A DNA stretch of 64,000 nucleotides from a virus. The notes beneath the pieces were generated by a model. It made no database searches, was not told the DNA's origin, and saw nothing but the letters and a program-made list of their open reading frames with translations. The DNA is taken from the IMG/VR virus record IMGVR_UViG_3300029349_000001, positions 1 through 64,000 of that record. One strand, 5' to 3'. Below, piece by piece: positions 15,007-35,016 of this stretch; position 1 is the first letter of the stretch, and every line of letters starts with the position of its first letter. Made by a program: the position numbers and the translations under genes.

Positions 15007-15936
15007 ATGCCAGCCGCTAATCATAATATTACTATCGAACAAGGCTCCGCTTTTGAGATAGTATTTGAATTTATTAATAACAACAACGTCCCCATAGATC
15101 TTACTAATTGGTGTGCTCTATTACAATGGATAGACAGCGATGATAATACAGAAGTTTTTAATACCAATTATGATGGTGATGACTATAGAATGTTTGTGAA
15201 TAGCCTGGGTAAGATCACTCTCCAGATACCGGCTAAAATCACCAAAGATTACAACTTTACCTCTGCAACATACGACCTAGATCTACAAGAACCAAACGAG
15301 CAATATCCTAATAGTGGACTTAAAACATATAGATTAAGTACCGGTACAATTACTCTATTGAAGCGCAACACTCCGCCAGTTACAGCAGACTGTGCTAGTG
15401 TCAACTCGGACTTTGATATAGATACTTGTAATGTTGGTTGTGAAAATCTAGATCCTTATTCTGTAGTTTATGAAGGATCTTCTGTTGTGGTTGCTGATAA
15501 TACAACGACTACCTCTAGTATTAGTGTTACAGACTCTAGAACTATCGAAAATATAGATGTTGCTATTAATGGATTGAGACATTCTTCTCCGCAAGATCTA
15601 ATTTTTGTATTAGAATCTCCAAATAACTCATTAGATAGTGTGTTATTATCTATGAACAGCAAAATATCGAACTATAAGCCCGGTTTTAGTTTTGTATTTT
15701 CTGATAGAGCACCAGCTAATGTATATCTTAATAATGTTTTAAATAATAAGAGTTGTAGAATCACTAATAAGAGCACTACTCTTGGTCTTACTAATTTTGA
15801 TACTAGTGCTAGTTTTTCACACCTTATTGGTCAAACACTATCTGGCCTATGGAAGCTACATGTAATAGATAGCGACACCGGAGTAGCTGGAACTATTGAT
15901 GGATGGAAATTGATAATTACTTATTCGGATACTTGA
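15007..15936 (+). CDS. Virion protein: N-terminal baseplate-upper-like beta domain plus a proprotein convertase P-domain-like C-terminus
   Basis: ITIEQGSAF...PIDLT...YDLDL at the N-terminus; SSISV...IENIDVAINGLRHS...DL...LESP...GLWKLHVID...GTIDGWKL is the P-domain pattern. Confidence 0.7.
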   Translation: MPAANHNITIEQGSAFEIVFEFINNNNVPIDLTNWCALLQWIDSDDNTEVFNTNYDGDDYRMFVNSLGKITLQIPAKITKDYNFTSATYDLDLQEPNEQYPNSGLKTYRLSTGTITLLKRNTPPVTADCASVNSDFDIDTCNVGCENLDPYSVVYEGSSVVVADNTTTTSSISVTDSRTIENIDVAINGLRHSSPQDLIFVLESPNNSLDSVLLSMNSKISNYKPGFSFVFSDRAPANVYLNNVLNNKSCRITNKSTTLGLTNFDTSASFSHLIGQTLSGLWKLHVIDSDTGVAGTIDGWKLIITYSDT

Positions 15937-18350: not shown

Positions 18351-19448
18351 ATGCCAGCAAATAATAGAATTTACTATGCTAGTCAAGCAGTACAGTTACT
18401 TCCCTGCAATAGCGAGCTTTCCGCTCATTATTCTGATTGGTTAGTTCCACAGGGACTACAGAGCGTTGGCATGACAACAAATTTCAATCTAGAGCAGGTC
18501 TTCCAGCTCGGACAACTAGAGCTTTATGATAATCTTGAAGGAGTACCAGAAGTAGAAGTTACTCTCAATAAGGTTCTAGACGGAACTCCCCCACTTTATC
18601 TAATTTGCACAAATGGTAATTCCACATTCCCATATGCTAACGGAAGAGAAATTGCTGAAATCGTTAACAATCGTGTTTCTTTCCGTCTTGGTATTTGGCC
18701 AGACAACGTAACAGCCGCTACTGGCGCACCAGCCCACCAAGTAACTTGCAGTGGTATGTATCTATCACGATTTAGTTATACCATTCCTGTTGACGGCAAT
18801 GCTACCGAAGAAATCACACTAGTTGGTAACAACAAGGTGTGGAGTAGTGGATCGCAGATGAGTCTTGCCGAGTTTAATCCCAATGCTGGTAGATCACCCA
18901 CAGCTCCTAACGTAATGAGACGTTATAGTTTCGATACTGGAACTGTACTACCAACTGGCACAGCCGGTATTCCAATTCCAAGCGGCAGATCCGTTTCGAG
19001 ACCATATGTTCAGAACATTACAATTAGTGCTGACCTTGGAAGAGAAGCTATCAACGAACTTGGTTCTTTCTCTCCATACTTCAGATATGTTAACTTCCCA
19101 CTCGAAGTAACATCTGAATTTGAGGTTACAGCTAGTGACGGAGACAAGGTTGATGCTAATGACTTCTCCACAGTTAGTGGTTGCGGTCAGAACTTCACCA
19201 ACCTCCAGAACAAAGAAATCAAGGTTATTCTTTGCGGTACCGGAGCTGGTAGTAACAAGCTCATGTTGGATCTAGGTAAGAAGAATAAGCTAACTAGTGT
19301 TAACTATACTGGTGGAGACACCGGTGGTGGAAACGCTACAATTACTTATAGCTTCCAAACATTCAACAAGTTTGCTATGACAGCTAGTGGTACTTTTGCT
19401 GGCAGTAGTTGGGTAGACAACCAAGCTGACCAAGAGTTCTACAACTAA
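18351..19448 (+). CDS. Major tail (tube) protein
   Basis: 365 aa, beta-rich with two-fold internal similarity (GLQSVGMTTNF...VFQLG / VQNITISADL...INELG), codon usage suggesting high expression, located between neck genes and chaperones/TMP. Confidence 0.7.
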   Translation: MPANNRIYYASQAVQLLPCNSELSAHYSDWLVPQGLQSVGMTTNFNLEQVFQLGQLELYDNLEGVPEVEVTLNKVLDGTPPLYLICTNGNSTFPYANGREIAEIVNNRVSFRLGIWPDNVTAATGAPAHQVTCSGMYLSRFSYTIPVDGNATEEITLVGNNKVWSSGSQMSLAEFNPNAGRSPTAPNVMRRYSFDTGTVLPTGTAGIPIPSGRSVSRPYVQNITISADLGREAINELGSFSPYFRYVNFPLEVTSEFEVTASDGDKVDANDFSTVSGCGQNFTNLQNKEIKVILCGTGAGSNKLMLDLGKKNKLTSVNYTGGDTGGGNATITYSFQTFNKFAMTASGTFAGSSWVDNQADQEFYN

Positions 19449-19516
19449 GTAGTTAATTAGACGATTTTAGAGGCAGACATTAGGATTAGTGGTTTTACAA
19501 CCGGAGAAAGGACATT

Positions 19517-19669
19517 ATGGAAGAATTATTTAATATAATAGGAAAGCTGTACGTAGATATCTACAATACCCAAAAAATTATAGAACTACTACAAACTCAG
19601 CTTAAGGATAAGGACAGGGAAATATCTGAACTAAAGCAAAGGAAATCTTCTAAGGATGATAACGGATGA
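19517..19669 (+). CDS. Small coiled-coil protein (50 aa) missing from the ORF track
   Basis: Manual translation MEELFNIIGKLYVDIYNTQKIIELLQTQLKDKDREISELKQRKSSKDDNG; GGAGAAAGGA RBS; overlaps the next gene start. Confidence 0.7.
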   Translation: MEELFNIIGKLYVDIYNTQKIIELLQTQLKDKDREISELKQRKSSKDDNG

Positions 19670-20705
19670 TGTACGTATTGTTTTATATCGTATCTTGTCT
19701 GGTTCATTGTTTTTTCATGTAGATGGTCAAACATACGAATTTAGAAAGATTACGAATAAAACCAAATATGAGGCAGAAATTTTATATCGTCAAATTATTA
19801 ATGACGAGAAGTATAACGAATGGATAAGATCAGATAGTGCTGAGCAGATGATGATAAATTTAGGACTATGGACAAAAGACACTAATGATATGCTGAAGAA
19901 ACTAGAGAAGAGCATCGAAAATACTAAAGTAGAATTATTTAGTAATTTTTTATATCCAGAGAAAATTAAGAAAATAAGGAAAAGTCTGGATTCTTACAGA
20001 GCACAGCTAGACAAAGCCCTATCCGCTAAACAAAATTTCATAGTGTCTCATACTCTAGAAGGACATGCCGAAAACATCAAAAATGAATATATGGTGTGTC
20101 AGAGCTTGTACATGGACGACGATAGAGTATTTGATAGTCTAGATAGCATTAATGAAAGTGGTTCATATATGTATTTTAATGCTATAGTATCAGAGATCAA
20201 TAAGCATTCTATTTCTATGTCTCAATATAGAAAAATAGCTCGTAGCGATGAATGGAGATCTTATTGGAGTTGTAACAAAATCAATACATTTGAAGGATGT
20301 GTAGCTAATTGGACCGACGAACAACGTAGTTTAATTAATATCTCTAAAATGTATGATAGCATATATGAACACCCAGAATGTCCCAATGATAAGATTATCG
20401 AAGACGATGACGCATTAGACGGCTGGACAATAGTACAAAAAAGAAAGAACGACAAAAACAAGAATCAACAATCGATAGATGCTATTAATCCTAATTTAAA
20501 GAATGCTCAAGAAGTATTTCTCATGGCACAGAATAAAGAAGAAGTAGATAATATTATAGGACTTAATACTCCCGACGCTTTACATAGAATGAAACAAAAG
20601 AGAGCCGCGATAGATGCTGTTGGTACAATAGATGATATTAATCTGCCCGATGTTCAAGCAGAACTTAGGAACCAGACCAATCAACAAATTAAAAATAGGA
20701 AATAA
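19656..20705 (+). CDS. Putative tail assembly chaperone (paralog of 21011)
   Basis: 349 aa, between tube and TMP genes; shares GLW...H(T/S)xEGxAxN...Y(M/L)V with 21011. Confidence 0.5.
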   Translation: MITDDVRIVLYRILSGSLFFHVDGQTYEFRKITNKTKYEAEILYRQIINDEKYNEWIRSDSAEQMMINLGLWTKDTNDMLKKLEKSIENTKVELFSNFLYPEKIKKIRKSLDSYRAQLDKALSAKQNFIVSHTLEGHAENIKNEYMVCQSLYMDDDRVFDSLDSINESGSYMYFNAIVSEINKHSISMSQYRKIARSDEWRSYWSCNKINTFEGCVANWTDEQRSLINISKMYDSIYEHPECPNDKIIEDDDALDGWTIVQKRKNDKNKNQQSIDAINPNLKNAQEVFLMAQNKEEVDNIIGLNTPDALHRMKQKRAAIDAVGTIDDINLPDVQAELRNQTNQQIKNRK

Positions 20706-20708
20706 CTT

Positions 20709-21014
20709 ATGAGCATGAATAATGATGATATTCTATATAATATCGAAAAACGACTCAAAACAACAATGATAGGATCCATAGCAAAATTTGAAGAATTTTT
20801 TGGACATCTATGGGAGGAAGAAAATCCTAATATAGACCATTATGATAAATTATGGGAACAAGCTAGAACATCCATATTAAATAATGGAAATAATCAAATT
20901 AGACTTGCGCTTAATGAATTGTCTGATTATTTATATAATAGACGAAATTCCACGACCGTAAAACAAAAGTACCACTATAAGTTTAACTTTAGGAACAGAG
21001 GAGATAACGAATGA
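20709..21014 (+). CDS. Hypothetical protein
   Basis: 101 aa, tightly packed, ATGA overlap with the next gene. Confidence 0.7.
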   Translation: MSMNNDDILYNIEKRLKTTMIGSIAKFEEFFGHLWEEENPNIDHYDKLWEQARTSILNNGNNQIRLALNELSDYLYNRRNSTTVKQKYHYKFNFRNRGDNE

Positions 21015-21886
21015 AGACTAAGACTTTTACCGTAAAGCTAGAGGATAAGGACAGAGAGATTCTCGTAAAGACACCATCTTTAAATGATCAGCGAGAAGCT
21101 CAAAAGGTTTATAATCAAGCCTTTACAGACGCTATAAAGAGCAAGAGTGTGGTACGAGCCAAGCTCGATGATCTACTCAAAGATCAAGGACTATGGAGCG
21201 ACGAAAAACAGGCCCAATTTAACCTGCTCCAAAAAGAAATTCTAGACGGAGAAAAAAGACTAGCAAAGGGAGGATTTAGCTTAAATGAGGCTAAAGACCT
21301 AGCTATAGCCATAAAGGCCAAGAGAGATGAGATTAGAGATCTAATCAGTGTTAGAACATCTCTAGATAATCATAGTGCAGAAGGACAGGCCGATAATGCT
21401 AGATTTAATTACTTAGTATCGGTATGTGTGGTGTATAATGATTCAAAGGAACCTGTTTTTAAGGACATGGAAGATTATTTGAACAGATCGACAGAAGAAG
21501 TTTCACTATTGGGCGCTCAAAATTTGGCTAATATGCTTTATGGATTGGATAATGACTATGAAAGTAATTTACCAGAAAATAAGTTTCTTAAAAAATATAA
21601 GTTTGTTGACAATCAATTAAGACTTGTAGACAAGAAGGGTAGGCTGATAGACGCCGACGGTAGATTAATTGATGCCGATAACAGATTTATAGACGAAGAG
21701 GGTAACTTTGTAGATAAGTTTGGAAATAGGGTAGACAAAAATGGAGATTACGTTGTTGAGCCAGAGCCATTTTTGGATGAAAACGGAAAACCAATTATTT
21801 TAGATGAACCAAAAAATGAAACACCAACCACTCCATCACCAGAACCAGAGTCTACGGCTGTTTCAGAAGAAAAGTCGTCTCAGTAA
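21011..21886 (+). CDS. Putative tail assembly chaperone with 7-aa (I/V)DxxG repeats
   Basis: 291 aa, directly upstream of the TMP gene; GAGGAG RBS. Confidence 0.55.
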   Translation: MKTKTFTVKLEDKDREILVKTPSLNDQREAQKVYNQAFTDAIKSKSVVRAKLDDLLKDQGLWSDEKQAQFNLLQKEILDGEKRLAKGGFSLNEAKDLAIAIKAKRDEIRDLISVRTSLDNHSAEGQADNARFNYLVSVCVVYNDSKEPVFKDMEDYLNRSTEEVSLLGAQNLANMLYGLDNDYESNLPENKFLKKYKFVDNQLRLVDKKGRLIDADGRLIDADNRFIDEEGNFVDKFGNRVDKNGDYVVEPEPFLDENGKPIILDEPKNETPTTPSPEPESTAVSEEKSSQ

Positions 21887-21916
21887 TTACACATTAAACA
21901 TTTTATATGTTACTTT

Positions 21917-21957
21917 AATCCCTAGTCTATGTAACTATAGATTAGGGATTATTTTTT
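21917..21957 (+). terminator. Rho-independent terminator-like hairpin just upstream of the TMP gene
   Basis: aatccctagtctat-gtaact-atagattagggatt (14-bp stem with one G-U pair) followed by ATTTTTT. Confidence 0.75.
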
Positions 21958-21972
21958 AATAATAGGATTTAA

Positions 21973-24900
21973 ATGTCTACAGCTTTTAATTTAACAGCAC
22001 AGCTGAATCTTAGAGGACCAACCAATGTCAGGAATATTGTTTCTGGCATTAGAAGGCAATTAGGTAATATTACAGCAGACGTAAATCTAAGAATAGACCC
22101 TGCTGCTACTAGAAATCTAACCCAACTTAATACAGCTTTAACAAACTTTAACGCAACCCTTAGAACCACACAAACAAATGCCGCTAATACAGCGAATGCT
22201 CTAAGAGGTTTGGCCAATGCTATTAATGGAATAAATGCTAACAATCTACCAAGAAACATGACCAACATCGCCACTGCATCAAATAGAGCAGCACAGGCTA
22301 CTGGTCGAGTAACACAACAGGTAGGAGAAGCTCGTAATCAGATGGAAGAATTCGGTAGACAGTCTGCTCTAGCTGTTCGTCGTTTTGCTGCTTTTAGTAT
22401 TTCTGCCGGTATCATTGTTGGTTTTACAAATGCTATTAATAAGGGTGTTAGAGCTTTCGTTGAGTTTGATAAAGAATTAGTTAAATTACAGCAAGTTACT
22501 GGTGAATCTGCAAAGGGATTATCTGGTCTTCAGAAAACTATTGCGAATTTAGCTTCTGGTTTAGGTGTTAGTTCTTCCGAATTAATTAATGTTTCATCAA
22601 CATTAGCACAGGCTGGTTTGAGTGCTAGAGATACTGAAAAAGCTCTTAAGGCATTAGCACTAAGTTCTTTGGCTCCGTCATTCGATGATATGAATAAGAC
22701 GGTAGAAGGTAGTATCGCATTGATGAGGCAGTTCGGCATTAGTGCCGGTCAACTAGATCAAGCTCTTGGTTCTGTTAATGCTGTTGCTGCGAAGTTTGCC
22801 GTCGAAGCTAGTGATATTATTGCTGCTATTCAGCGTACTGGTGGTGTGTTCGCTGCTGCTAGTAAGGGAGTTAGTGAAGGCACCGATGCACTCAATGAGT
22901 TTATTGCTGTTTTTACCAGTATCCGAGCCACTACTCGTGAAAGCGCAGAAACTATCGCAACCGGTTTGCGTACTATTTTTACTCGTGTACAAAGAGGAGA
23001 AACCATAGAGGCTCTTAAGCAATATGGTGTTAATCTTACTGATTTAGAAGGCAAATTCGTTGGAGCTTATAAGGCAGTGGAACTTTTATCTAGAGGTCTT
23101 GGTCAGATTGATCCAAGAGATCTAAGATTCTCTCAAATTGTAGAAGAACTTGGTGGATTCCGACAGATCGGTAAAGTTATTCCACTTATTCAACAATTTG
23201 CTACAGCACAACAAGCATTAGCAGTTGCTCAACGTGGTCAAGGTTCTCTAGCAGAAGATGCTGCTATCGCCCAATTATCTCTTGCTAATCAGATAGCTAA
23301 AGTTAGAGAAGAATTTTTAACTCTTATTCGTGATATTGGTGGAACAGATACCTTTCAGACTATTGCTAAAAGCGCTTTAGGTTTAGCTAGTGCGTTAATC
23401 AAAGTAGCAGATAGTGTTAAGGGGGTATTACCAGTACTTGGTGTGGTTATGGCCATACGAGGTACTGCTGCCTTATCCAGTTATGCTAGAGGTTTTGCTG
23501 GTGGTATGGGTAATATGAGAGGTGGACGCAGAGCAGCGAGTGGGGGTTATATTAAATATGCTGCCGGTGGACAGGTGCCTGTGGCTTTAATGCCCGGTGA
23601 GGCTGTCATATATCCAGAAGCAGCAAAGCGTATTGGCACACCAACTCTACGTCGCATGAATTATGCTGATAAGAAGATGGCTAAGGGTGGTAAAGTAGGC
23701 ATGGTTCCAGGCACCGGCAATAGTGATAGTTTTTATACATCTTTGCCAGCTGGAAGCTTTGTAATTAGGAAGAAAGCTACCCAAGCTATGGGCGCTGGTA
23801 GAATTAATGATATAGCGTCTGGTAGACAAAAATTTGCAGTAGGAGGCGAAGCAAAATGGAGGGACGTAGAAGCCCAGATGAGAGGCGGTAGAGGACGACC
23901 AAGCAAAAATACTACTACAGTAGGAGAAGCTGTTGATAAGGTATCGTCTAAAGAATACAACAATAGAAAAGGCAGATTTAAGTCTGATTTTCCTTTTATC
24001 ATTAGAGGATTAAATAGAGCAGGAACTAAAGCTCAAATTAATGAAGAAGCAATATTAGATAAATATCTTAAAAAAGGAGTCAATGATCTTTCTAAAGCTA
24101 TTGTTAATCAAACACAAGGAAATATAACTGTTCCTTCTAGTGATATTGATATTCAAAATAAAGAAAGTATTTATGGAGGACTATTTGAAACCGCTTTATT
24201 AAAGATTAGTAAAAGATCAGCAGATAAAAAAGACAATAGTCAAAACTTTGACTTTCCAAGAGGTATAGGACCGATCTTGTCTAATATCTTTAGTGGTATG
24301 CCTCCTAGTATATCTACCGACGTTAAAAGAACAGCAGCAGCCAATGCTGGTATGAAATCTAATATAGCTAATAAATTAGCGAATGAAATGGCTTCCAATA
24401 GACTACCCAAACAGCCCATGCCGGTCGGAGTAGTATCTTTAAGCCCAATGGACTCTGCTATAGTTTCTAAAATTTCAGGAGCAGAAGTAAACAAGTTATT
24501 AAATACTAAGCTAAAACAAAAAAGTAAAAGTCAAAGAAGAGCTATTGGTGGACTTATTCAAAAGTTCGCCAAGGGAGGACTAGCAACTAGAAATGTCGGA
24601 TATATTGATAGTGATGAAATAACACAGCTATTAAAAGATAGTGTTAAAGGTCCGCTCATTAAGGCCGAAATGGATAGGCTAGGAATCAAAGGAGTAACAG
24701 AGTATAAAGAACACCTCGCCAACTTAGCAGCGACCAGAAGAAACGACGGAAGTCTCAAGAGATTAACGAATATCTTTGGTGTTGCTGGATCTGGCAAGAG
24801 CACAATGCTCCAAGGTGGATCAAGAGCCGCCGAAGCAGACAACGCCAGACTACGCAAAACCAATAGATATCCAGTATTAACAGAGCAAGATATATTGCGT

Positions 24901-27900
24901 TCAGATCAAATTGTTGACTCTACATCAGTAGCCGGTCCTACTCAAAGAACAGCATTAAGTTCTGCTGATAGAGTAATAGCTTTATCATCTAGAACTAAAG
25001 AATCGCAAGAAGCACTAAAGAAGAATAGAAAATCTAGAGATACTAGTGGTAGAAATTTATTTGGTAGAAGACCAGGATCTACCAAAAGCGCCCCATTAGA
25101 TAGTGGTATGGGAGAGGCATATATCGCCGCTAGTGGTGTTTCTGGTGTTGATCCTAAAAAAGTTGTTACAATGAAGTTGGGTGAAAAGTTTAGAAAGACC
25201 AGAACATCACAACCAACAGTAAGAACTCCAGATAAAACTGGTTTATTTTATGGTAATTTTGGACCCACAACAAAAGGCCACACTAGTGTCGTAAAAGAAG
25301 CAGAAAAAATGGGTATTCCTGCTAAAGACTTTGTTGCTTTAGTAGGTGGTGATACTCCTATAGATTATACAGATAAAGATCCTCATAGTAGACGTACTGC
25401 TATCTTCCCACAGAAAAGTTCTGATCAACTACCGTCACGACTAGGTATGGCTAGAGCAGCTTTTGGCGCTATGGGAGCCAACGTATCCGCCATGCCCAAA
25501 GGAAGCGGCCCAGGAAGTATTCCGTCTGCATTTAAAGTAGGAGAAGATAGTTATATTGTACCTAGAGGCAAGGGAGATATAGCATTTGTAGGTGACGAGA
25601 AAGAGTCTGGGTCTTTATCTAAATATGAAAAACTAGGATATGGCGTTAAATCTCTTCCAAGATCTGGCGGTATCAGTGGCACTAAAGCTAGAGAAGCCAT
25701 AGCAGCTAATGATATTCCAGCCTTGAAAAAGTTGCTAAGTCCAGCCGGATTCGAGTATGTGCAAAAACATATGGCTACTCTTCAACAGCGTCCTAAGTTG
25801 CTAGACGCTATCTTATCCAAGATTGAGAGAAATAGCGCATCTGGCAAAGGTACAGCAGGCAGACTATCACAGATTAAATCTCAGTTAGCAGACTTACCAT
25901 CTAGAGTTAGTAAAACTACACCAGCAGATGTTGTAGCAAAAATAGAGTCTTTAAGAAAAGAAAGAGATTCATTATCTAGTAAAGTTGGCAGATTACCATC
26001 TAAATTAATGTCTAGATTAGAACAAAGACAAAAATTTGCTGTTGGTGATGAAGTCAAGAAAAGAAAAATCAAAAAGATTAACCCAAATGACTACTCACAA
26101 AGTATTCAAAATCTACAGAATGATCCTAACAGTATTCTAAGACAGCAGGCTGTTGGTGTTGCTATTCTTCAGGGACCAAAGAAAGGTGTTGCAGATTCTG
26201 CTGTTAGTAAAAAGTCTATTATACAATCTGTTGGCAAACAATACAGCGATTTATTAGGTTCTGCTGTGTCCGGTGGTAGTATTGGTATTCAGAGAGAAGC
26301 CTTAAAGCCACAAGTATACAAAGACTTCAATGAAGGTATCGAAAATGGCCTAGTACAAGCCGTTAATACTGCTGTTGGTACCATTTCTAGTAAATATCCA
26401 GAACTACCCACTCCGGCAATCAACGGAGAAGAAGAAAGAAGAAAATATTTAAAGGGTGTTAATGATGCTGCTAAAGGCAATATGTTCGAAGAAATGCTAA
26501 CAAGCATGAGGAACAAAGGACAGTATGATGCCAACCCAGATCCACAAAGATCTTTTGACTTTGCACCAAATAAAGGCTCCGCTTTTGGATTGTCTAATAT
26601 ATTCGATAAAATTTCTTCTCTTTTATATGTAGACGCTAAGGCTAGCAATCCTTCTGATGCTGCTATTTCTAAGAAAATTGCGAACCAAACTCTTAGAGAT
26701 TTAGGGGTTATTAAGGGTAGAAAATCTAAGGATGTTCCAGATCAAGGTTCTATGGAGAGAGATATTAGTAAGAGGTTGCAGTCTGTTACTGAAGATTCTC
26801 CGTTATCATTACAAGATTTACAAAAAGAATTACCCAATGCTAAACTAAAAATGACCAACTCTATTGCCAAGAGTATGGGTCTTGTGGTTGATAGGGCCGG
26901 AGGTAAAACCAATTTTATTAGACCTAGAGTCGGACAACCTAGAAGACTAGCTAGAGGTGGTTTCGCTAATAGATTAGCGGTATCTGATCACGATATGACC
27001 GGAGCTGTGACAGCAGGAAAAGAAACTCCCAGTTTGTCACAATTTAAAGATCCCAAACTAGCAGTTCCAGATATAATGTCTGGTAGTCCAACTAAATTAA
27101 TAGGACTTCTTAAGCAATATGGAGCTACCCAGATACTTACTGCTAGAAGCGGCGGCCCTAAAGGAGAGATGAGAGATGCTCTTAAGAGATTTTATAACAA
27201 AAATGGTTTATTAATTCCAGACTCTAGAATAACTACATTAGGAGATCAGATCAATGATATTCCTACTCCAGAAAGAAAAGCACGAGCTTTATTTGATTTA
27301 GTTAAAAAATATGGTAAAGTAGATTTTTTTGATGATGATCCTAGAAATATAGAAGCTGCTAAAGACGTTAAGGGAGTAAATGCTAGAAGAGTTAAGGTTA
27401 GAAAAGCTTCTGGCGGATCAATTCCTTCCTCAATAGACAACTCATTGTCTCTTAATAGATCTGCTAAAGATAAAAGATTGGATTCTAAAAAATTAGCAGC
27501 TTTTCTTGGCGCTAAAACCACAACTTCTACTAAGCAACAAGAACTAGCAGAACGATTAAAAGACCTTGGTGTATCAGCTCCCTCTAAACCAAATTATGAA
27601 GAATTACTAAAAGGCCTAAAAGGATATGCAAAAGGAGGAGAAGTACCAATAGTTGCTCAAGAGGGAGAATATGTTATTAACAGGAAATCTGCAAAGGCTA
27701 TAGGATATGGTAATTTACATGCTTTAAATAAATATCATACTGGTGGAATAGTACAAAAATTTGGCGCCGGAGGACCGCTGGACTCCGCTATGGCCTCAAT
27801 GTCTGCCAAAGATGCTGCTAAGCTAAAGGTTTCTATTAGTAAAAATGCTAAAGCCTTTGATCAGTTAGAGAAAGGCGTTAAGGGTTGGCCAATAGACGCG

Positions 27901-30900
27901 GTACAAGCAGCTATGAAAAAACTAGCAAGAACACTAGAACGAGGAGACAAAACCTTTAAGTTTGATAATAAGAACTATAATAAAAACAATCCCGCAACAA
28001 GACAAAACAAAAAAGAAAGAGTCGGACTAAAGGGCAAGCCAGCCGGTACAGGAACATCAAAAGCTTCTACCAATGAAGCCAATTTTGAAGCAAATAAAGT
28101 AAAAATGATTGCTGATTTACAAAAATATGAAAAAGCACAATACGACAAAGAGAGAAAAAAGGGAAAAACAGCACAAGAAGCCAGAGAGTCGTCTAAAGCA
28201 GCAGCAATAGCTCGCACAAAACAAATAGCACAACCAATGTCTAAACAACAAGAAAGAGCGGTTACTGCACAAGCTATTCGTAAAGCTAGAGCATCTGGAG
28301 CAAATAATCAGGATGCAAAAAGATCAGGGCAAAATGCTTTAAATAATGCTAGAGCAAAACAACAAGCACAATCTCAAGGAGCTGCGATATTCAATACCGC
28401 CTCGGTGACCGGAGATAAAACGTCTTTAAGAAACGCCCTCGGTGGATACAACCCAGCTTCTGCCGCTAGAGCCGGAGGAGGAACCAGAACAGGCGGCGGA
28501 GGAGGAACAGGAGCAGGTGGTGGAGGATCATCTAGACGAAGAAGATCGTCTGGAGGAGGTCAGCAACCAGATAGGGATAATAATGGTCGTATAATGGGTA
28601 TGGGAAGATTAACTCAAGCTGGTTTTGGTATTAGCATGATGGGCGGTCTTGGTAGTCAGTTCTTTAATCCAGAATCTAGCGCATCAAATGCTGCGAATGC
28701 TGCTTTTACAGAAAGTTTTACTAGTACTATTGGTATGGGAGCGACCGTTGCTGGTAGTATAGGAGACTTGCTTAGTGGTAGTGGAGAAGATAACAACAGA
28801 AGAAGACCATCCAGAAATTCTCGCAACAGAGGAACATCAACTAGAACGAGACCACAAGCTTCTCCGTCGAGTCGAGGAAACAGTAGAAGCAGCGGCCCAA
28901 GGGTATCGTCTGGCAGCTCCGGTAGTGGCGACGGTAGTGGCTCAGGCATGGGAGTACTGGGAGGACTTGGTGCCGTACTGGGAGTTGTTGCAGTAGGAGG
29001 ACTTGCTTTAGCGGAGGGGTTGAAGGCCGCTCACAATGCTGCTAGAGAATTCACTATCAACCTAGCTAATAATAAACTACAAGAGTCATTAGAAAAAGCG
29101 AATAAGTCTGTAGAAAAATTTAGTAATAATCTCAAAGACCGAACAGCAGAGACCCAAGCGAAACGAGATACTCTAGATGTCGTTAAGGCTACCGATGCTT
29201 TAGACGCAGCTTCTTCAAAACCAGAAGCAGGATTATTTAATCTTGGAGATGCTATGTCCGGAGATAAGGGCAGTTTTGAGCGTAGTCAAATTCTTAATAA
29301 GAGGGGCATATCCGCATATCTTAGCACAACTAATATGTTTGGGGGAGAGAACGCAGCAAAAAATCAAGCTGCTCAATTTTCGACACTAATTCCACAGCTA
29401 GCATCTGAAAAATCCAAAAGATACACAGGAGCAGCAGAATCCTCCACTTCGTTCCTAGAATCAAAATTCCGTTCTGGCTCTAGTATAGACGAGATGAAGA
29501 AAGATAAAGACCAGTTTAGTAATCTCACAAAAAGCCTAGCATTAGCGGATGCTGCGATTCAACAACAGATTATGACTGTTGAAAATTCTACCACACTCAA
29601 TGATGCACAAAAGGCTACCCTTAAAAATAGTATCATAGCTACCAATGCTGAAACCAAAGCTAGAGAAATACAGACTAAAGTATTGAGAGAAATGGCTCTT
29701 GAAAGTCTTAATAAGACTACAATAATTTTACAAAATAGTCTCGAAAGAATGTTCCAGAACATGGAGCAAGCTATTGCTTCTAATGCATATGCATTGGATA
29801 AACTTACTGCTAGCGCAGACCTAGCATCCGCTTCCTTGTCCGGTTCTGCTAAAGTAGGATCGGTAAAACTAGATAGTATTAATACCCTACAGAACCCAAG
29901 GGCAAATAGCGGACAACCTATGAGATCCGCAGCTGATCAAGCAGCATCTATGTTTGGAAATGAAGCCCCGGCTATTAAGTCTATATTACAAGTTGCTTCT
30001 TCTATGGAAGATGCTGTAATGTCTACTATTAACAGTACTCTAAAAAATAATCCTGGTGCTACCAATGAACTTGTTGGTGGGTCTATAGATAAATCTATAT
30101 TTAAAGTATTAACCGATCTTAAATTACCTCCTGACTTGAGTTCCAAGCTATCTAGTGAAGTTGGTTTAGCTATTAAAGATATGAGAAAGTCTGGTGAAGA
30201 CAAGGTAGATTTTAGTCAGCTAGTTGAAAAAATACCACAACTCGGCAGAGTACTAGATAGTGCAAAAAGAGCGCAAGAAGTCGCTATTAAATCACTAGAA
30301 AATTGGCAAAATGCTTTAAATGAATATGCTAATACGACTAATCAATTAATTGATATACAAATAGATAGTAATCAAAAACTTAGAAGAGCTACAGATATAC
30401 TAATCGGTGGTCAAAATGAATTAGCTAATGCTTTTGGTAAATCGGCTTCATTACAAAGCGCTGTAAATAACTCCAAAGCCAAAACAGCTTCCCAAACAGG
30501 AGGACCAACCGACCCATCAGACATCCGTAGAAATATACAAAGTCTTGAATTAACAAGACAATCAGAGCAGGCTAGGTCAGATACTGCATCCCAAAAGGGT
30601 TTTGGTGGTAAAGATGAATTCATGATGATGCAAGAAAGGCTAAAAAATACTAGTGTTGCATTAAGAGAAAATTATGATGCTCTTAAGAACATGGCGGACA
30701 ACACAGATGTTGCCAGCGCCGCCCTAAATAAAATTTCTGAAATTAGACAACAAAGACAGGCGGGAGTCGGTTTTGCTGAAAAGCTAGTATCCAGTACTCC
30801 CAAAGAATTAGCAAATCTTAATATGTCAATGGCCAGACTGCAAAACAACATGGCTGGTGGAATGAATATGTCCAATGCTAGCCAAAGAGCTGGCGACCTA

Positions 30901-33900
30901 CAGCTGTTCAACGAACTGGCTCCTTTGCTGGGAGATAAGCAATCAGAGATGAAAGCTAATGTTTTAGAAAACATGCTCAAAGAATCTGGAGTTGGAGTGA
31001 GTCCAATGATGCAGGAGGTTCTGACATCTCTAAGGAATCCGGAGGCCGATCCGGCCATGCAAGAAGCTATTGCTACTTATAGAGAAGCTATCGGTCTTCA
31101 AGCAGAGGCCAATAAACAATTAGTTTTTCTTAATACTCAAATGGCAGAGAATAGTGCGGATATAGCTGCTAATAAATTGGCTCAATCTATGCGTGGTGTT
31201 ATACTAAAATTTGAAAGCCAGCAATTATTAGATATTAATAATAACATCAAAAATTTAATTGCAGTAGTAGAGGCCAAAGGTGGCTTGGCGCCGGGCGCTG
31301 CTCCGGCCGCAGGAAAAGCTCGTGGAGGAATGATATATGCCGCGGCTGGACAGTTGGTTGACTTTCAACCAAAAGGAACAGATACCGTTCCTGCTATGTT
31401 AACACCCGGTGAATTTGTGGTTAATAGAAAATCTACACAAAAACATTTACCATTACTTAAATCTATTAATAGCAACTCATATTCTAATGGTGGTAAAGTA
31501 GGATACTATGCTTATGGAGGATTGGTATTCGGAGATCCTTGGCAGAGAGAAGATAAAGCAGATGCTCTTAATAGGTCGGCCTCTGTTGAAAACGAAACAC
31601 CAGATAGACATCCTGATCTACTAAAAAATATGAGTAAAAGTAAGGGAGATTTGTCCAAATATTTTGAAGATATCTTTTCTGTTCAAGGGGCGTTTTATGC
31701 TGCCAATAAAAACTCTGGCCCTGTATCTGATTGGTTTTTTGACAAATTTACCGGCTCATTTTCTGGGCTACAACCACAAGCTGTTTTGGGTTCCTCATAT
31801 TCTAAGTTTGTTGCTTCTGTCGGTCCGGGAGTCGTCGATTATACTAATATTACCAGATCAGGAAATGTTAGAACTCCTAAAATTGGTAATATCCCAACCC
31901 TGGAATTCTTTTCAGATATAGTTTCTCAAACAGCGGAACAGAAAAAAATCAAAGAATCACAAATAAAAGAATATTATGGTGTGCTAGACAATATACTTAA
32001 ATTTATGCCAAAAACAGAGATATCTGGCGATAGTATCAAAGTTGATGGGAAAAATATAATTATAGATAGTCTTCTTGATCCAAAATCTAGACCAGACTTA
32101 TCTCCCCAGGTTGATGTTACTTCAACAGCCGATGGCTACAAACAATTGATAACCGTATCTAATCTTTCTAAAAAAACGGGTAATTTGCATGGTTTATATA
32201 CTAAAAATAATATAAATACTATTCATGCAAATAGTGATGATATGGGTGGAATCGGGAATATATATGGTATTAATGCACAGAATAGGGATCTAAGCGGATA
32301 TCCATATACTAGGATAGTAGCCGGATTGGATAGTATGAGATATGCTGGCCTAGGAGGCTTCTCTTCTATGGATATAGCTGGAGACCTTGCTTCTCAGACA
32401 ACTAATTATGACAATTCCATGTTCGATGGTGATATGGCACAAATTAAACAGAGACTATCTAATGCTCAGATAGTGAAAGCTAATCTAGAAAGAACAAAAG
32501 AACTATTATCTGGCGGTAACGTTAAACTTCAAGAGAGTGAAACATCAGAAGCTAATAGAAACTATGTAAATAAACTACAACAATTACTTAGCGGTTCGGT
32601 ATTTAAAGCGACTTTTTCCGAAGCCGAAATAAAAGGAAAAGATTCTGTCAAGCCACCCATAACTCTGTATAACCTAGATGGTAATGATTGGGATTCTAGA
32701 GTAGATGTTCTTGACAAGGATGCTTCTGTTACAAAAGGAACGTACGCTGGTAAAAAGGGCTCTAGCTGGATCCCTGTTGGATCAAGAACCATGGGCGTGG
32801 GAACAGTACCTGATCAATTTAGTATTCAAAAATGGTTTCCTTGGGTTGGGTCTGGATTTAATTCTACTATTTTTGATGATCTTAAAAACAAATATAATGC
32901 ACAGAATCCAAACAATGTAAAGGTAACTCCAGGATCATATGCTGATGATATAATGGCATTTAATTATAAAAACATAGAAGGACCTATGTTCGATGCTAAT
33001 AAAAAGATGACCAAAAACAAATACAAGTTTACAACAGTTTCGCTGGATCAAAATACTGTAAACGAGAAACTGAATCCGTTCCGAGACTTAGTTGATCAAA
33101 ACCTTCTTCCACAAGATCCAGAAAAATCCGAGATTTACGCAAACACTCCGGGTGATCTAATAGGTATGATCAAAAATTTGGTCAATAATACTATTCTAAG
33201 AACTCAACAAAACACTTTATCATTTGGTAGTTCTATTAAGAGATTATCAGCAGCAGACAAAGCTATAGCAGACCTAGATTTTGCTCAACAAACAAAAGAT
33301 AATGCTTATTTACTTAATTCTATAGCACCAGGATTTCAATACGAAGCAAAATTATATGGAGACGAACTAAGAAAGAGAATAGCACAACAAAAACAAGATC
33401 AACAAGCAGCAGCTGGAGAAAAAGGGATAGCCAATAAAGCAAATCTTCAAGACCTACCAGAAAATCCGCTATTGTTAGCCGAACAAGCGAGAGGCATAGT
33501 TAGTAAAGTCTTATCTCCTGTTTCTGGAATTTTATCTGCATACAATATTAAACTCTCTCCTATTAGAGTAGCATCTCAAATTGCTCCATACGGTAATTAT
33601 TTATTACAGGCTCAACAGTTTTTTGGTGATGCTGTAACTCAAAAATTTAAAAACAACAAGAAGGGAATAGACCAAAGACTATGGAATGTCTGGGGAGCGC
33701 TCGGGGCCTCTGGTAAAGTATTTGAAAAACTAGGAGCGGGAGATAAGCAGGGGCTACAAACCCTATTAGGTTCTGCTGCTAGTACTCTAGATAGTACAGA
33801 TTTAGGAGATATGGTTGTACGATATGGTCAATTGTTAGCGGCTCAAGGAGCAACATTCGCTGGTACAGCTGGGCTATCTACTCCGAAAGACGTACTAAAG

Positions 33901-35016
33901 AAAGAAATTGGAGACAACGACAAACAAACAATAGAAGGTATATTTAAGAAAGCTCAAACAGAAGAGGCTACAGTAGCCAGAGATGGTAGATTAACCGTAA
34001 ATAAAACCGAAGGAAGGAATCTGCCGACCAACTTATTAGATCTCGGAAAGAAAATAGTTAACCCATACTCCACATTCCAACCTGGAGATCGTAGTCCTTT
34101 ATTTGATATTCTTCTCAAAGGATTGGAAACACACGACAACAAGGGGGTTAAACGCAATGTTAATGAAAAATTAGTCACCAATCTCAAAGCTCTAAAACAG
34201 TTCTATGCTTCATTTTTAGATCCGATAGTAAGCGGAGGGGTTGCTCCAAATGATGATATGATACGGCAGATATCTGATCAGTATCCAACAATGAACGCTA
34301 TTTTACAAGTATTAACTAATGGCGAATATGGAGCGATGCCGGATGCTAAAAAAATGCAAGAGCTTGCAGCTGCTAAAAAAGCCAGAATGGAAGCAGAGAA
34401 AAAGGCTAGTGGCGGCATAGTATATGCGAGCACTGGAACCCTAGTAGACTATAAACCCAGAGGGACTGATACTGTTCCAGCGATGTTAACACCAGGAGAA
34501 TTTGTAGTTAATAGACAATCAACATCCAAACACTTACCATTATTACGTGCTATTAATAGTAATAGATATCAAACAGGTGGCGTTGTATCCCCCAACTATT
34601 ATGAAGCCGGTGCGCTTGCATCAGGAGCAGCAAAGACTGTCGGTGCTATAGCAGGCATGGTCGGTATCAAATTAGATACCAAAAAACTAGAGACAGATAT
34701 TACATCAGCATTCGATAGCGGTTCTCAACAACTAAAGAGTCAACTTCAGGGTATTTTTGGATTAAAATCAGAAGACCGCAATGCATTAATATCATTTGGT
34801 ACTAGTATGGTAAGACTAGTATCTCAGCTAGCTCAAGTTAGTATACCTCCAGAAATTAAGTTCAGTATGCAGCCAGTACAAGTGAATATTACAGGCGCTC
34901 AAGGATTGACAGAGGCTGCTCAAAGTCTAATTGATGGAGCAATCAAGAAAGCTTTTGATGATTTTTTAAGTATTAATGATTTGCAGGGTACCTATAAAGC
35001 GCCAGATGAAAACTAG
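21973..35016 (+). CDS. Tail tape measure protein (4347 aa) with embedded enzyme-like domains
   Basis: TP901-type TMP core at ~22455-23430 (FDKELVKLQQVTG...LAQAGL...TRESAETIATGLRTIFTR); Gly/hydrophobic helices ~28620-29020; GTDTVPAMLTPGEFVVN motifs; position after tube and chaperone genes. Confidence 0.9.
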   Translation: MSTAFNLTAQLNLRGPTNVRNIVSGIRRQLGNITADVNLRIDPAATRNLTQLNTALTNFNATLRTTQTNAANTANALRGLANAINGINANNLPRNMTNIATASNRAAQATGRVTQQVGEARNQMEEFGRQSALAVRRFAAFSISAGIIVGFTNAINKGVRAFVEFDKELVKLQQVTGESAKGLSGLQKTIANLASGLGVSSSELINVSSTLAQAGLSARDTEKALKALALSSLAPSFDDMNKTVEGSIALMRQFGISAGQLDQALGSVNAVAAKFAVEASDIIAAIQRTGGVFAAASKGVSEGTDALNEFIAVFTSIRATTRESAETIATGLRTIFTRVQRGETIEALKQYGVNLTDLEGKFVGAYKAVELLSRGLGQIDPRDLRFSQIVEELGGFRQIGKVIPLIQQFATAQQALAVAQRGQGSLAEDAAIAQLSLANQIAKVREEFLTLIRDIGGTDTFQTIAKSALGLASALIKVADSVKGVLPVLGVVMAIRGTAALSSYARGFAGGMGNMRGGRRAASGGYIKYAAGGQVPVALMPGEAVIYPEAAKRIGTPTLRRMNYADKKMAKGGKVGMVPGTGNSDSFYTSLPAGSFVIRKKATQAMGAGRINDIASGRQKFAVGGEAKWRDVEAQMRGGRGRPSKNTTTVGEAVDKVSSKEYNNRKGRFKSDFPFIIRGLNRAGTKAQINEEAILDKYLKKGVNDLSKAIVNQTQGNITVPSSDIDIQNKESIYGGLFETALLKISKRSADKKDNSQNFDFPRGIGPILSNIFSGMPPSISTDVKRTAAANAGMKSNIANKLANEMASNRLPKQPMPVGVVSLSPMDSAIVSKISGAEVNKLLNTKLKQKSKSQRRAIGGLIQKFAKGGLATRNVGYIDSDEITQLLKDSVKGPLIKAEMDRLGIKGVTEYKEHLANLAATRRNDGSLKRLTNIFGVAGSGKSTMLQGGSRAAEADNARLRKTNRYPVLTEQDILRSDQIVDSTSVAGPTQRTALSSADRVIALSSRTKESQEALKKNRKSRDTSGRNLFGRRPGSTKSAPLDSGMGEAYIAASGVSGVDPKKVVTMKLGEKFRKTRTSQPTVRTPDKTGLFYGNFGPTTKGHTSVVKEAEKMGIPAKDFVALVGGDTPIDYTDKDPHSRRTAIFPQKSSDQLPSRLGMARAAFGAMGANVSAMPKGSGPGSIPSAFKVGEDSYIVPRGKGDIAFVGDEKESGSLSKYEKLGYGVKSLPRSGGISGTKAREAIAANDIPALKKLLSPAGFEYVQKHMATLQQRPKLLDAILSKIERNSASGKGTAGRLSQIKSQLADLPSRVSKTTPADVVAKIESLRKERDSLSSKVGRLPSKLMSRLEQRQKFAVGDEVKKRKIKKINPNDYSQSIQNLQNDPNSILRQQAVGVAILQGPKKGVADSAVSKKSIIQSVGKQYSDLLGSAVSGGSIGIQREALKPQVYKDFNEGIENGLVQAVNTAVGTISSKYPELPTPAINGEEERRKYLKGVNDAAKGNMFEEMLTSMRNKGQYDANPDPQRSFDFAPNKGSAFGLSNIFDKISSLLYVDAKASNPSDAAISKKIANQTLRDLGVIKGRKSKDVPDQGSMERDISKRLQSVTEDSPLSLQDLQKELPNAKLKMTNSIAKSMGLVVDRAGGKTNFIRPRVGQPRRLARGGFANRLAVSDHDMTGAVTAGKETPSLSQFKDPKLAVPDIMSGSPTKLIGLLKQYGATQILTARSGGPKGEMRDALKRFYNKNGLLIPDSRITTLGDQINDIPTPERKARALFDLVKKYGKVDFFDDDPRNIEAAKDVKGVNARRVKVRKASGGSIPSSIDNSLSLNRSAKDKRLDSKKLAAFLGAKTTTSTKQQELAERLKDLGVSAPSKPNYEELLKGLKGYAKGGEVPIVAQEGEYVINRKSAKAIGYGNLHALNKYHTGGIVQKFGAGGPLDSAMASMSAKDAAKLKVSISKNAKAFDQLEKGVKGWPIDAVQAAMKKLARTLERGDKTFKFDNKNYNKNNPATRQNKKERVGLKGKPAGTGTSKASTNEANFEANKVKMIADLQKYEKAQYDKERKKGKTAQEARESSKAAAIARTKQIAQPMSKQQERAVTAQAIRKARASGANNQDAKRSGQNALNNARAKQQAQSQGAAIFNTASVTGDKTSLRNALGGYNPASAARAGGGTRTGGGGGTGAGGGGSSRRRRSSGGGQQPDRDNNGRIMGMGRLTQAGFGISMMGGLGSQFFNPESSASNAANAAFTESFTSTIGMGATVAGSIGDLLSGSGEDNNRRRPSRNSRNRGTSTRTRPQASPSSRGNSRSSGPRVSSGSSGSGDGSGSGMGVLGGLGAVLGVVAVGGLALAEGLKAAHNAAREFTINLANNKLQESLEKANKSVEKFSNNLKDRTAETQAKRDTLDVVKATDALDAASSKPEAGLFNLGDAMSGDKGSFERSQILNKRGISAYLSTTNMFGGENAAKNQAAQFSTLIPQLASEKSKRYTGAAESSTSFLESKFRSGSSIDEMKKDKDQFSNLTKSLALADAAIQQQIMTVENSTTLNDAQKATLKNSIIATNAETKAREIQTKVLREMALESLNKTTIILQNSLERMFQNMEQAIASNAYALDKLTASADLASASLSGSAKVGSVKLDSINTLQNPRANSGQPMRSAADQAASMFGNEAPAIKSILQVASSMEDAVMSTINSTLKNNPGATNELVGGSIDKSIFKVLTDLKLPPDLSSKLSSEVGLAIKDMRKSGEDKVDFSQLVEKIPQLGRVLDSAKRAQEVAIKSLENWQNALNEYANTTNQLIDIQIDSNQKLRRATDILIGGQNELANAFGKSASLQSAVNNSKAKTASQTGGPTDPSDIRRNIQSLELTRQSEQARSDTASQKGFGGKDEFMMMQERLKNTSVALRENYDALKNMADNTDVASAALNKISEIRQQRQAGVGFAEKLVSSTPKELANLNMSMARLQNNMAGGMNMSNASQRAGDLQLFNELAPLLGDKQSEMKANVLENMLKESGVGVSPMMQEVLTSLRNPEADPAMQEAIATYREAIGLQAEANKQLVFLNTQMAENSADIAANKLAQSMRGVILKFESQQLLDINNNIKNLIAVVEAKGGLAPGAAPAAGKARGGMIYAAAGQLVDFQPKGTDTVPAMLTPGEFVVNRKSTQKHLPLLKSINSNSYSNGGKVGYYAYGGLVFGDPWQREDKADALNRSASVENETPDRHPDLLKNMSKSKGDLSKYFEDIFSVQGAFYAANKNSGPVSDWFFDKFTGSFSGLQPQAVLGSSYSKFVASVGPGVVDYTNITRSGNVRTPKIGNIPTLEFFSDIVSQTAEQKKIKESQIKEYYGVLDNILKFMPKTEISGDSIKVDGKNIIIDSLLDPKSRPDLSPQVDVTSTADGYKQLITVSNLSKKTGNLHGLYTKNNINTIHANSDDMGGIGNIYGINAQNRDLSGYPYTRIVAGLDSMRYAGLGGFSSMDIAGDLASQTTNYDNSMFDGDMAQIKQRLSNAQIVKANLERTKELLSGGNVKLQESETSEANRNYVNKLQQLLSGSVFKATFSEAEIKGKDSVKPPITLYNLDGNDWDSRVDVLDKDASVTKGTYAGKKGSSWIPVGSRTMGVGTVPDQFSIQKWFPWVGSGFNSTIFDDLKNKYNAQNPNNVKVTPGSYADDIMAFNYKNIEGPMFDANKKMTKNKYKFTTVSLDQNTVNEKLNPFRDLVDQNLLPQDPEKSEIYANTPGDLIGMIKNLVNNTILRTQQNTLSFGSSIKRLSAADKAIADLDFAQQTKDNAYLLNSIAPGFQYEAKLYGDELRKRIAQQKQDQQAAAGEKGIANKANLQDLPENPLLLAEQARGIVSKVLSPVSGILSAYNIKLSPIRVASQIAPYGNYLLQAQQFFGDAVTQKFKNNKKGIDQRLWNVWGALGASGKVFEKLGAGDKQGLQTLLGSAASTLDSTDLGDMVVRYGQLLAAQGATFAGTAGLSTPKDVLKKEIGDNDKQTIEGIFKKAQTEEATVARDGRLTVNKTEGRNLPTNLLDLGKKIVNPYSTFQPGDRSPLFDILLKGLETHDNKGVKRNVNEKLVTNLKALKQFYASFLDPIVSGGVAPNDDMIRQISDQYPTMNAILQVLTNGEYGAMPDAKKMQELAAAKKARMEAEKKASGGIVYASTGTLVDYKPRGTDTVPAMLTPGEFVVNRQSTSKHLPLLRAINSNRYQTGGVVSPNYYEAGALASGAAKTVGAIAGMVGIKLDTKKLETDITSAFDSGSQQLKSQLQGIFGLKSEDRNALISFGTSMVRLVSQLAQVSIPPEIKFSMQPVQVNITGAQGLTEAAQSLIDGAIKKAFDDFLSINDLQGTYKAPDEN
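31378..34560 (+). repeat. Duplicated TMP module GTDTVPAMLTPGEFVVNRxSTxKHLPLLxxINS (copies at ~31378-31472 and ~34462-34560)
   Basis: Near-identical peptide copies flanking ~960 aa of unrelated sequence. Confidence 0.9.

Follow-up and report, generated by a model that had tools for sequence, protein, structure and literature searches.

Can a tape measure protein (TMP) carry, besides the sequence that belongs to the phage tail, a set of enzymes for the cytoplasm of the next host? This question is raised by one gene in a 64,000-nucleotide stretch of viral DNA (positions 1 to 64,000 of IMG/VR virus record IMGVR_UViG_3300029349_000001), referred to here, at its full length, as the window. Positions 21973-35016 of its plus strand form one uninterrupted open reading frame (ORF) of 4,347 codons, and the 4,347-aa product, P0001, is encoded on a 161-kb contig of an uncultured phage of ~160 kb.

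The tape measure identity of P0001 was supported by several lines of evidence. PhageMin_Tail (PF10145) matched aa 188-392 with 79 bits against a cut-off of 33.2 (E 5.6e-22), and the TMP families PHROG 4211, 28, 167 and 1533 were matched with E values from 1e-21 to 3.5e-10. Along with a joint motif shared with annotated TMPs (see below), these matches upheld a preliminary description of this DNA, which had named the protein a TMP. To gather relatives, 5.8 billion proteins were searched through a word index, with aa 520-1940 of P0001 as the scored region. This gave 55 proteins of 2,400-7,600 aa, nearly all with PF10145, whose genes lie on metagenomic contigs (JGI, ENA, Logan and NCBI) that reach 230 kb. 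Over 100 cluster representatives of this giant TMP family were found, none of them in the 50,697 GenBank phage records. In GenBank phages only the TMP core matched, the matches being distant SPbeta-like and Rhodococcus TMPs, and modules B, C and D (defined below) gave no tblastn match among those records. From the PF10145 and PHROG matches, the contigs of the relatives and the absence of the cargo from GenBank phages, we therefore conclude, on sequence grounds, that P0001 is a genuine giant TMP from an uncultured clade of large phages. An assembly chimera was considered and rejected, given that the architecture recurs on independent JGI, ENA, Logan and NCBI contigs.

BLAST comparison of P0001 with its relatives yielded a block pattern consisting of a widely shared core (aa 1-628), four modules designated A to D (module B being a unit at aa 860-1365), a joint module, a basic tract and a helical rod. 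The features of this region, in window coordinates, are as follows.

22534..23148, plus strand: TMP core domain (PhageMin_Tail, PF10145), aa 188-392.
23392..23481, plus strand: hydrophobic segment 1, aa 474-503, just ahead of the cassette region (Kyte-Doolittle window above 1.5).
23485..23856, plus strand: joint region 1, aa 505-628, with four AxGG joints and two GE-x-V copies; weak match to lambda gpH 754-789 (E 0.027).
23857..24546, plus strand: module A, aa 629-858, an unmatched fold with GGLFE, FDF and DVK motifs; paralogue of module C.
24580..25227, plus strand: first half of module B, aa 870-1085, a P-loop NTPase, probably kinase-like, with Walker A at aa 936-944.
25228..25785, plus strand: second half of module B, aa 1086-1271, a predicted HIGH nucleotidyltransferase resembling NMNAT/NaMNAT/PPAT, with TKGH at 1100-1103 and ISGTxxR at 1234-1240.
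25786..26067, plus strand: helical tail of module B, aa 1272-1365, ending at a joint-like QKFAVGD (long helices at 408-504 of the model).
26068..26937, plus strand: module C, aa 1366-1655, second copy of the unmatched fold (GNMFEE, FDF, VDAK), assigned by paralogy and conserved motifs.
26959..27417, plus strand: module D, aa 1663-1815, a predicted HAD-superfamily phosphatase (DHDMT, LTARS, K, FFDDD; conserved motifs I-IV).
27628..27780, plus strand: joint module 2, aa 1886-1936 (AKGG...GEYVINRKS...HTGG), located by BLASTP to lambda gpH.
27781..28935, plus strand: very basic low-complexity tract, aa 1937-2321, K/Q/A-rich and then G/S/R-rich (charge and sequence).
28936..29031, plus strand: hydrophobic segment 2, aa 2322-2353, glycine-zipper-like, closing the cassette region (Kyte-Doolittle 2.26).

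Every motif that had been located in the protein beforehand was present at its position. The borders of the modules carry basic-AxGG joints (RRAIGG, KFAKGG, RLARGG, RKASGG and YAKGG), and the helical tail of module B belongs to a unit that moves as one piece in the relatives. Outside the glycine-rich tract, AxGG occurred 13 times, compared with 3.3 +/- 1.9 times in 500 shuffles (maximum, 9). The block pattern and the AxGG sequences at its borders agree with the train of discrete modules bounded by GG joints that had been proposed. Insertion of an intein or homing element was rejected as an explanation of these blocks, their borders being GG joints without splice-junction residues. When single segments of P0001 were searched against Pfam, only sub-threshold matches were obtained, and the nature of the modules was studied with alignments and structural models of their families.

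In an alignment of 28 copies of module B, reaching down to 26% identity, the Walker A lysine, the GxFxPxTxGH and ISGTxxR motifs and several arginines and aspartates were retained. Thus, K83 of the Walker A motif (GVAGSGKST) was invariant, with G77, G80 and G82 conserved in at least 90% of the sequences; G235 and P239 of the HIGH-type motif (GNFGPTTKGH) were invariant, with T241, G243 and H244 at 90% or above; and S376 and R381 were invariant in GISGTKAREAI, which lines up with this motif in 9x6f and MJ0951. AlphaFold, run on this alignment, predicted a compact two-domain unit followed by a helical hairpin (pLDDT 87.9, pTM 0.84). The transferase domain of the model had the Rossmann-like HUP fold, and its best matches were NMNAT, NaMNAT and PPAT structures, with a profile E value of 3.4e-6 against a solved NMNAT. 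The Pfam family CTP_transf_like scored 14.3 bits on this domain, below its cut-off of 21, a shortfall that we read from the sequences as the mark of a family too divergent for that Pfam model. For its part, the P-loop domain resembled AAA_33/zeta kinases and not a recognised ribosylnicotinamide kinase. By fold and motifs, module B is predicted to be a two-domain enzyme that joins an AAA_33/zeta-like P-loop domain to an NMNAT-like adenylyltransferase. The HIGH-type nucleotidyltransferase announced in the preliminary description was thereby confirmed at the level of predicted fold and conserved TxGH and ISGTxxR motifs, while its P-loop kinase was confirmed as regards the Walker A motif, conserved in the 28 sequences; from its AAA_33/zeta resemblance, this half of the module is only probably kinase-like.

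Module D was aligned in 23 sequences, including eight TMP-embedded copies and 14 mostly free-standing proteins. Within its motifs (DHDMT, LTARS, K115 and FFDDD), T69, K115, D133 and D134 were invariant and D18 and D20 were conserved in at least 90% of the sequences. No Pfam model matched the module D of P0001 itself. Among the aligned sequences, 10 of 23 matched DUF2608 (best E value, 5.7e-8) and 8 of 23 matched Hydrolase (PF00702), while other relatives matched Acid_PPase, NIF, Acid_phosphat_B or PNK3P, all of them HAD families. We accept module D as a HAD phosphatase on the basis of these motifs and of the Pfam families of its relatives, in line with the HAD domain that had been recognised from SDHDMT, with all four motifs conserved. 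For both modules B and D, the conservation of catalytic residues expected among homologues was borne out.

Modules A and C proved to be paralogues (E 2e-4). In 26 sequences covering both, the columns G..FE, FD and DxK were invariant or nearly so; E107, D130 and K157 were invariant, and D155 was conserved in at least 90%. The model of this domain was confident (pLDDT 86) and mostly helical, and its D and DxK positions formed only single-residue bridges. Foldseek found no match to the model in PDB or BFVD, in searches that tested the core only weakly, and in the ESM Atlas structure search the TM values stayed below 0.3. Pfam, PDB profile, VIA wide and Atlas feature searches likewise yielded no match to modules A and C; a weak rotamase match was dismissed, as it appeared in only 1 of the 26 members. 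Since the confident model matches no known fold, the label of two PD-(D/E)xK-like domains, given to these modules in the preliminary description, is unsupported. What stands of it is the conserved E/FD/DxK signature. Neither module was modelled as a restriction-like fold, which counts against that assignment to the extent that a weakly tested core allows. A confident model without structural neighbours makes the E/D/DxK domain a candidate new fold. The same domain is present alone in a free-standing gene of 206 aa (P0136; L004 651-1271) on a 2.2-kb contig; it is thus not confined to TMPs.

The distribution of the modules was surveyed in 115 relatives of at least 1,900 aa, a set gathered with the cassette region as the query. 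The core (aa 1-500) was present in 107 of the 115 and the joint module in 95, whereas module A was found in 10, module C in 18 and module D in 9. The two halves of module B were present in 88 (kinase half) and 89 (transferase half) of these proteins, so that the kinase-like domain plus the NMNAT-like transferase is the most widespread cargo of the giant TMP family. The modules occurred in the orders core-A-B-C, core-C-B, core-B-A, core-ART-B (where ART denotes an ADP-ribosyltransferase-like module), core-B-D and core-C-D, and the A-B-C-D order of P0001 was unique among the 115. Thus, when the TMPs of the relatives were aligned, as had been suggested for this protein, the cargo was swapped while the flanks persisted.

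Comparison with the closest relatives provided an example of such a replacement. A HAD module is missing from the five closest TMPs (82-99% identity up to aa 1650), in which module C leads straight into the joint. The contig encoding the 99%-identical protein, which represents the nearest phage, is 96% identical in DNA over window 18972-26924; there is then no detectable DNA similarity over window 26925-34409 (~7.5 kb, inside the TMP gene), and identity returns at 93% from 34410. In the dissimilar part (window 26925-34409 compared with L003 7953-16199), the protein halves are only ~46% identical. One breakpoint lies about ten codons ahead of the ARGG joint at aa 1660 and the other at the ASGG joint at aa 4145. 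In this pair, most of the TMP gene seems to have been replaced recently, between two breakpoints at AxGG joints. A published survey found no recent mosaicism in TMPs that it could confirm (PMC10684548); the pair described here is a clear case of it. Relative to the closest relatives, identity was 77-83% in the modules, ~85% in the core (over aa 1-1650) and ~50% in the helical rod; the modules are conserved at about the level of the core and above that of the rod.

Other cargo was recognised in the relatives. In a 1-kb fragment (L002), an ADP-ribosyltransferase-like module, with a match to ADPrib_exo_Tox above the cut-off (E 1.2e-6), was connected, through a GG joint of the common type, with the beginning of a module B. 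The ART-like module was found in at least 11 full-length relatives (e.g., P0033:1000-1262), twice in one of them; it mostly adjoins module B, which it directly abuts in some. Its STS and ExE motifs were invariant, the usual arginine was absent, and its profile matched SpvB (E 1.5e-4) and Vis (E 0.008). The location of an ART-like module next to an NMNAT-like one is suggestive of a role centred on NAD, but we treat this as speculation.

The joints themselves link P0001 to TMPs that have been studied experimentally. A joint module of 50 residues (GG...GE-x-V-x-N...GG) is present in five copies in P0001, and one of the copies matched 211 GenBank phage records; among the matches listed, all were annotated TMPs, two of them labelled endolysin. 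The joint copy at aa 1894-1927 aligned to residues 750-784 of lambda gpH (BLASTP E 9e-6), and other copies aligned to the same place, more weakly. Cleavage of lambda gpH near residue 710, where the protein is glycine-rich, yields gpH* and gpHC; neither the precise site nor the protease responsible is known, and gpH* leaves the tail and forms a trans-envelope channel (PMC12617516). With the match at 750-784, the homologous stretch lies in gpHC, near the cut and not at the cut. The two proteins share this joint homology and differ in that gpH has a single copy of the motif and no known enzyme. The TMP of phage T5, pb2, is split while the tail is being assembled, at a point between a hydrophobic stretch and the peptidase domain; the resulting pb2C fragment stays in the tail, and its expulsion, with a possible need to refold, has been proposed (10.1101/2022.09.20.507954). 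Like P0001, pb2 is a TMP that bears an enzyme domain; it differs in that its single enzyme is a C-terminal peptidoglycan hydrolase with a periplasmic site of action, while P0001 has four internal, swappable modules in its N-terminal third, with chemistry of the cytoplasmic type (ATP-dependent transferase, P-loop, HAD). By analogy, cutting of P0001 at its joints is a reasonable hypothesis, and the homology to gpH 750-784 provides a concrete place to seek the long-unknown processing site of gpH.

A further stretch is bounded by joints near the C terminus of P0001, where ~960 residues (aa 3186-4144; window 31528-34404) lie between two full joint-module copies. It had no Pfam match and was conserved in only some relatives; possible interpretations are a tip-associated domain and a second slot for cargo.

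How the modules would be used is the remaining part of the question. We propose that they are carried in the tail, expelled, and active in the host cytoplasm before phage expression, a proposal to which we give about an even chance of being correct. The modules would ride in the tail lumen within the TMP chain, extended or folded only in part, and on infection would leave with it before the DNA, in keeping with the known expulsion of TMPs. Two hydrophobic segments, aa 474-503 and 2322-2353, bracket a region with a net charge of ~+117, of which aa 1940-2320, within the low-complexity tract with its runs of G, S and R, account for +39. The second segment is the strongest hydrophobic stretch of P0001; among 17 relatives checked, segment 1 was at the same place in several, and an equivalent of segment 2 preceded the helical rod in about half. 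Insertion of these two segments into the inner membrane would leave the cassettes on the cytoplasmic side, where they could refold and act on nucleotides, and possibly on the ends of nucleic acids, ahead of phage gene expression. Cleavage may take place at the joints, as it does in T5 pb2 between the hydrophobic stretch and the enzyme domain, and frequent swapping at the joints would fit an arms race with the host.

Several points weigh against this proposal. That residues 630-1830 are present in the virion, are expelled and enter the cytoplasm are steps that we infer. Known enzyme domains of TMPs act in the periplasm, whereas ATP-dependent enzymes need the cytoplasm. Because a lumen of ~4 nm has no room for three to six folded 55-kDa modules side by side, unfolded storage would be required, and is assumed here. 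The number of TMP copies per virion is 3-6 (lambda and T5 figures; PMC12617516, 10.1101/2022.09.20.507954), by our own estimate too few for bulk synthesis of a metabolite or of the NAD+ pool; a scarce target could still be modified by an injected NMNAT-like enzyme in few copies. Modules A and C, two of the four, are without recognisable fold or function, and 20 alternative modules of the relatives (~16,000 aa) matched no Pfam family, so that enzyme cargo is established for a minority of the slots. The module frequencies are biased, since the relatives were gathered with the cassette region as the query. Lastly, in P0007 (L001 10001-23353), a 66%-identical relative, the Walker A of module B reads GSTKST and its HIGH motif reads HAGY. 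Catalysis is thus not strictly required everywhere, and the P0007 copy may be a decayed or re-purposed enzyme module.

These same facts can be arranged in other ways. The modules might act in the producing cell, where the TMP is a late and abundant product. They would do so either in cis or once released by cleavage at the joints as the tail matures, would serve, for instance, nucleotide or NAD metabolism late in infection, and would be inert or discarded in the virion. Both lambda gpH and T5 pb2 are cut during tail assembly, the joints are enriched and present at every module border, and the copy number late in infection would presumably be far above 3-6 per virion, which would suit an NMNAT-like metabolic enzyme. 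We nevertheless consider action in the producing cell rather unlikely: free-standing genes would be a simpler solution, the cut enzyme fragment of T5 remains in the tail, and delivered effectors are typically fused to a virion protein and swapped within it (PMC5512222). The ART-like modules of the relatives resemble injected effectors such as T4 Alt (precedent in PMC5512222). The degenerate P-loop and HIGH motifs of P0007, the lack of an enzyme fold in modules A and C and the many alternative modules without a known family would also fit structural ballast or regulators of assembly or ejection, in which enzyme folds serve as non-catalytic spacers, plugs or chaperone-binding sites. Such a fixed structural role is hard to square with the freely varying presence, absence and order of the modules, and the catalytic motifs of the nucleotidyltransferase and HAD modules are invariant or nearly so down to ~25-30% identity, which makes this explanation decidedly unlikely.

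Delivery could also end in the envelope or periplasm, with the modules acting like muralytic TMP domains on, for example, lipid-linked precursors or polymers of the wall. The TMP enzyme domains known from experiments all target the cell wall, TMPs demonstrably reach the periplasm, and zeta-type kinases target a wall precursor (PMC5512222). Against this, the best structural matches are cytoplasmic enzymes of the NAD and CoA pathways, and the ART-like modules require NAD+. The chemistry of the P-loop and HIGH nucleotidyltransferase domains needs ATP or another NTP, and these are absent from the periplasm. We regard a periplasmic site of action as highly improbable.

The closest known counterparts of P0001 are the polyvalent proteins of phages and conjugative elements and, among TMPs, those fused to an enzyme, of which T5 pb2 is an example; our literature searches found no description of TMPs with non-muralytic, cytoplasm-type enzyme cassettes. 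Polyvalent proteins, in which zeta-like kinases and ARTs recur (Iyer, Burroughs, Anand, de Souza, Aravind 2017, PMC5512222), are also giant proteins encoded among virion genes, with unrelated effector-type domains variable in set and order, and their repertoire overlaps that of the P0001 family in the zeta-like kinase and the ADP-ribosyltransferase. They differ in their anchors, which are MuF, portal, DarB-type or relaxase-linked domains (head or conjugation routes), whereas the only anchor found in P0001 is the PF10145 TMP core and its modules are fenced by a TMP-specific joint. In a term search of that paper there was no mention of tape measure or tail proteins, and NMNAT-like and HAD modules were not named. 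Sle1-type effectors of actinobacterial contractile injection systems (PMC13277306) are likewise built on a TMP-related scaffold, packed in a tail-like particle, and bear a functional domain that is exchangeable and varies among relatives, but they are cargo of a bacterial tail-like particle with a single C-terminal functional domain, and not length-determining TMPs.

With regard to module B, the closest counterparts are NMN adenylyltransferases of the NadR and NadM type; NadR, too, is fused to a P-loop domain, with the domain order reversed relative to module B. Nmnat serves phages in the NAD+ reconstitution pathway NARP2, which counters defences that deplete NAD+ (PMC13728456). Module B differs from NadR/NadM and NARP2 in lying inside a structural protein, of which few copies would be delivered.

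If TMPs do carry cytoplasmic enzymes, the tail lumen would be a second route, besides the head, for pre-made effectors, and the repertoire of immediate-early takeover and anti-defence tools would be wider; the joint-delimited slots also point to a natural scaffold on which foreign proteins could be packed into phage tails. All of these elements can be drawn into one picture, in which the giant TMP family would be a programmable protein-injection platform, the AxGG/GE-x-V joint both a site of recombination and, by homology with the region where lambda gpH is cut, a site of processing, the kinase/NMNAT-like pair (with the ART-like module) an NAD-centred takeover or counter-defence device working before phage expression, and the A/C domain a new nuclease-like fold. 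As a combination, we hold this picture to be doubtful.

Regarding the surroundings of the gene, Pfam and PHROGs searches with the neighbouring ORFs gave almost no matches, and none of the ten ORFs upstream of the TMP gene matched tail-tube, sheath or chaperone families. Upstream of the TMP gene, an ORF of 2,931 aa (window 745-9540) has as its only recognisable part a ConA-like lectin domain (Laminin_G_3, E 1.6e-8), and it is followed by an ORF of 1,309 aa without family. An ORF of 309 aa (window 15007-15936) combines an N-terminal LtfC-like beta-sandwich (a weak match, also to PHROG 1084) with a C-terminal proprotein-convertase P-domain (E 7.6e-7).

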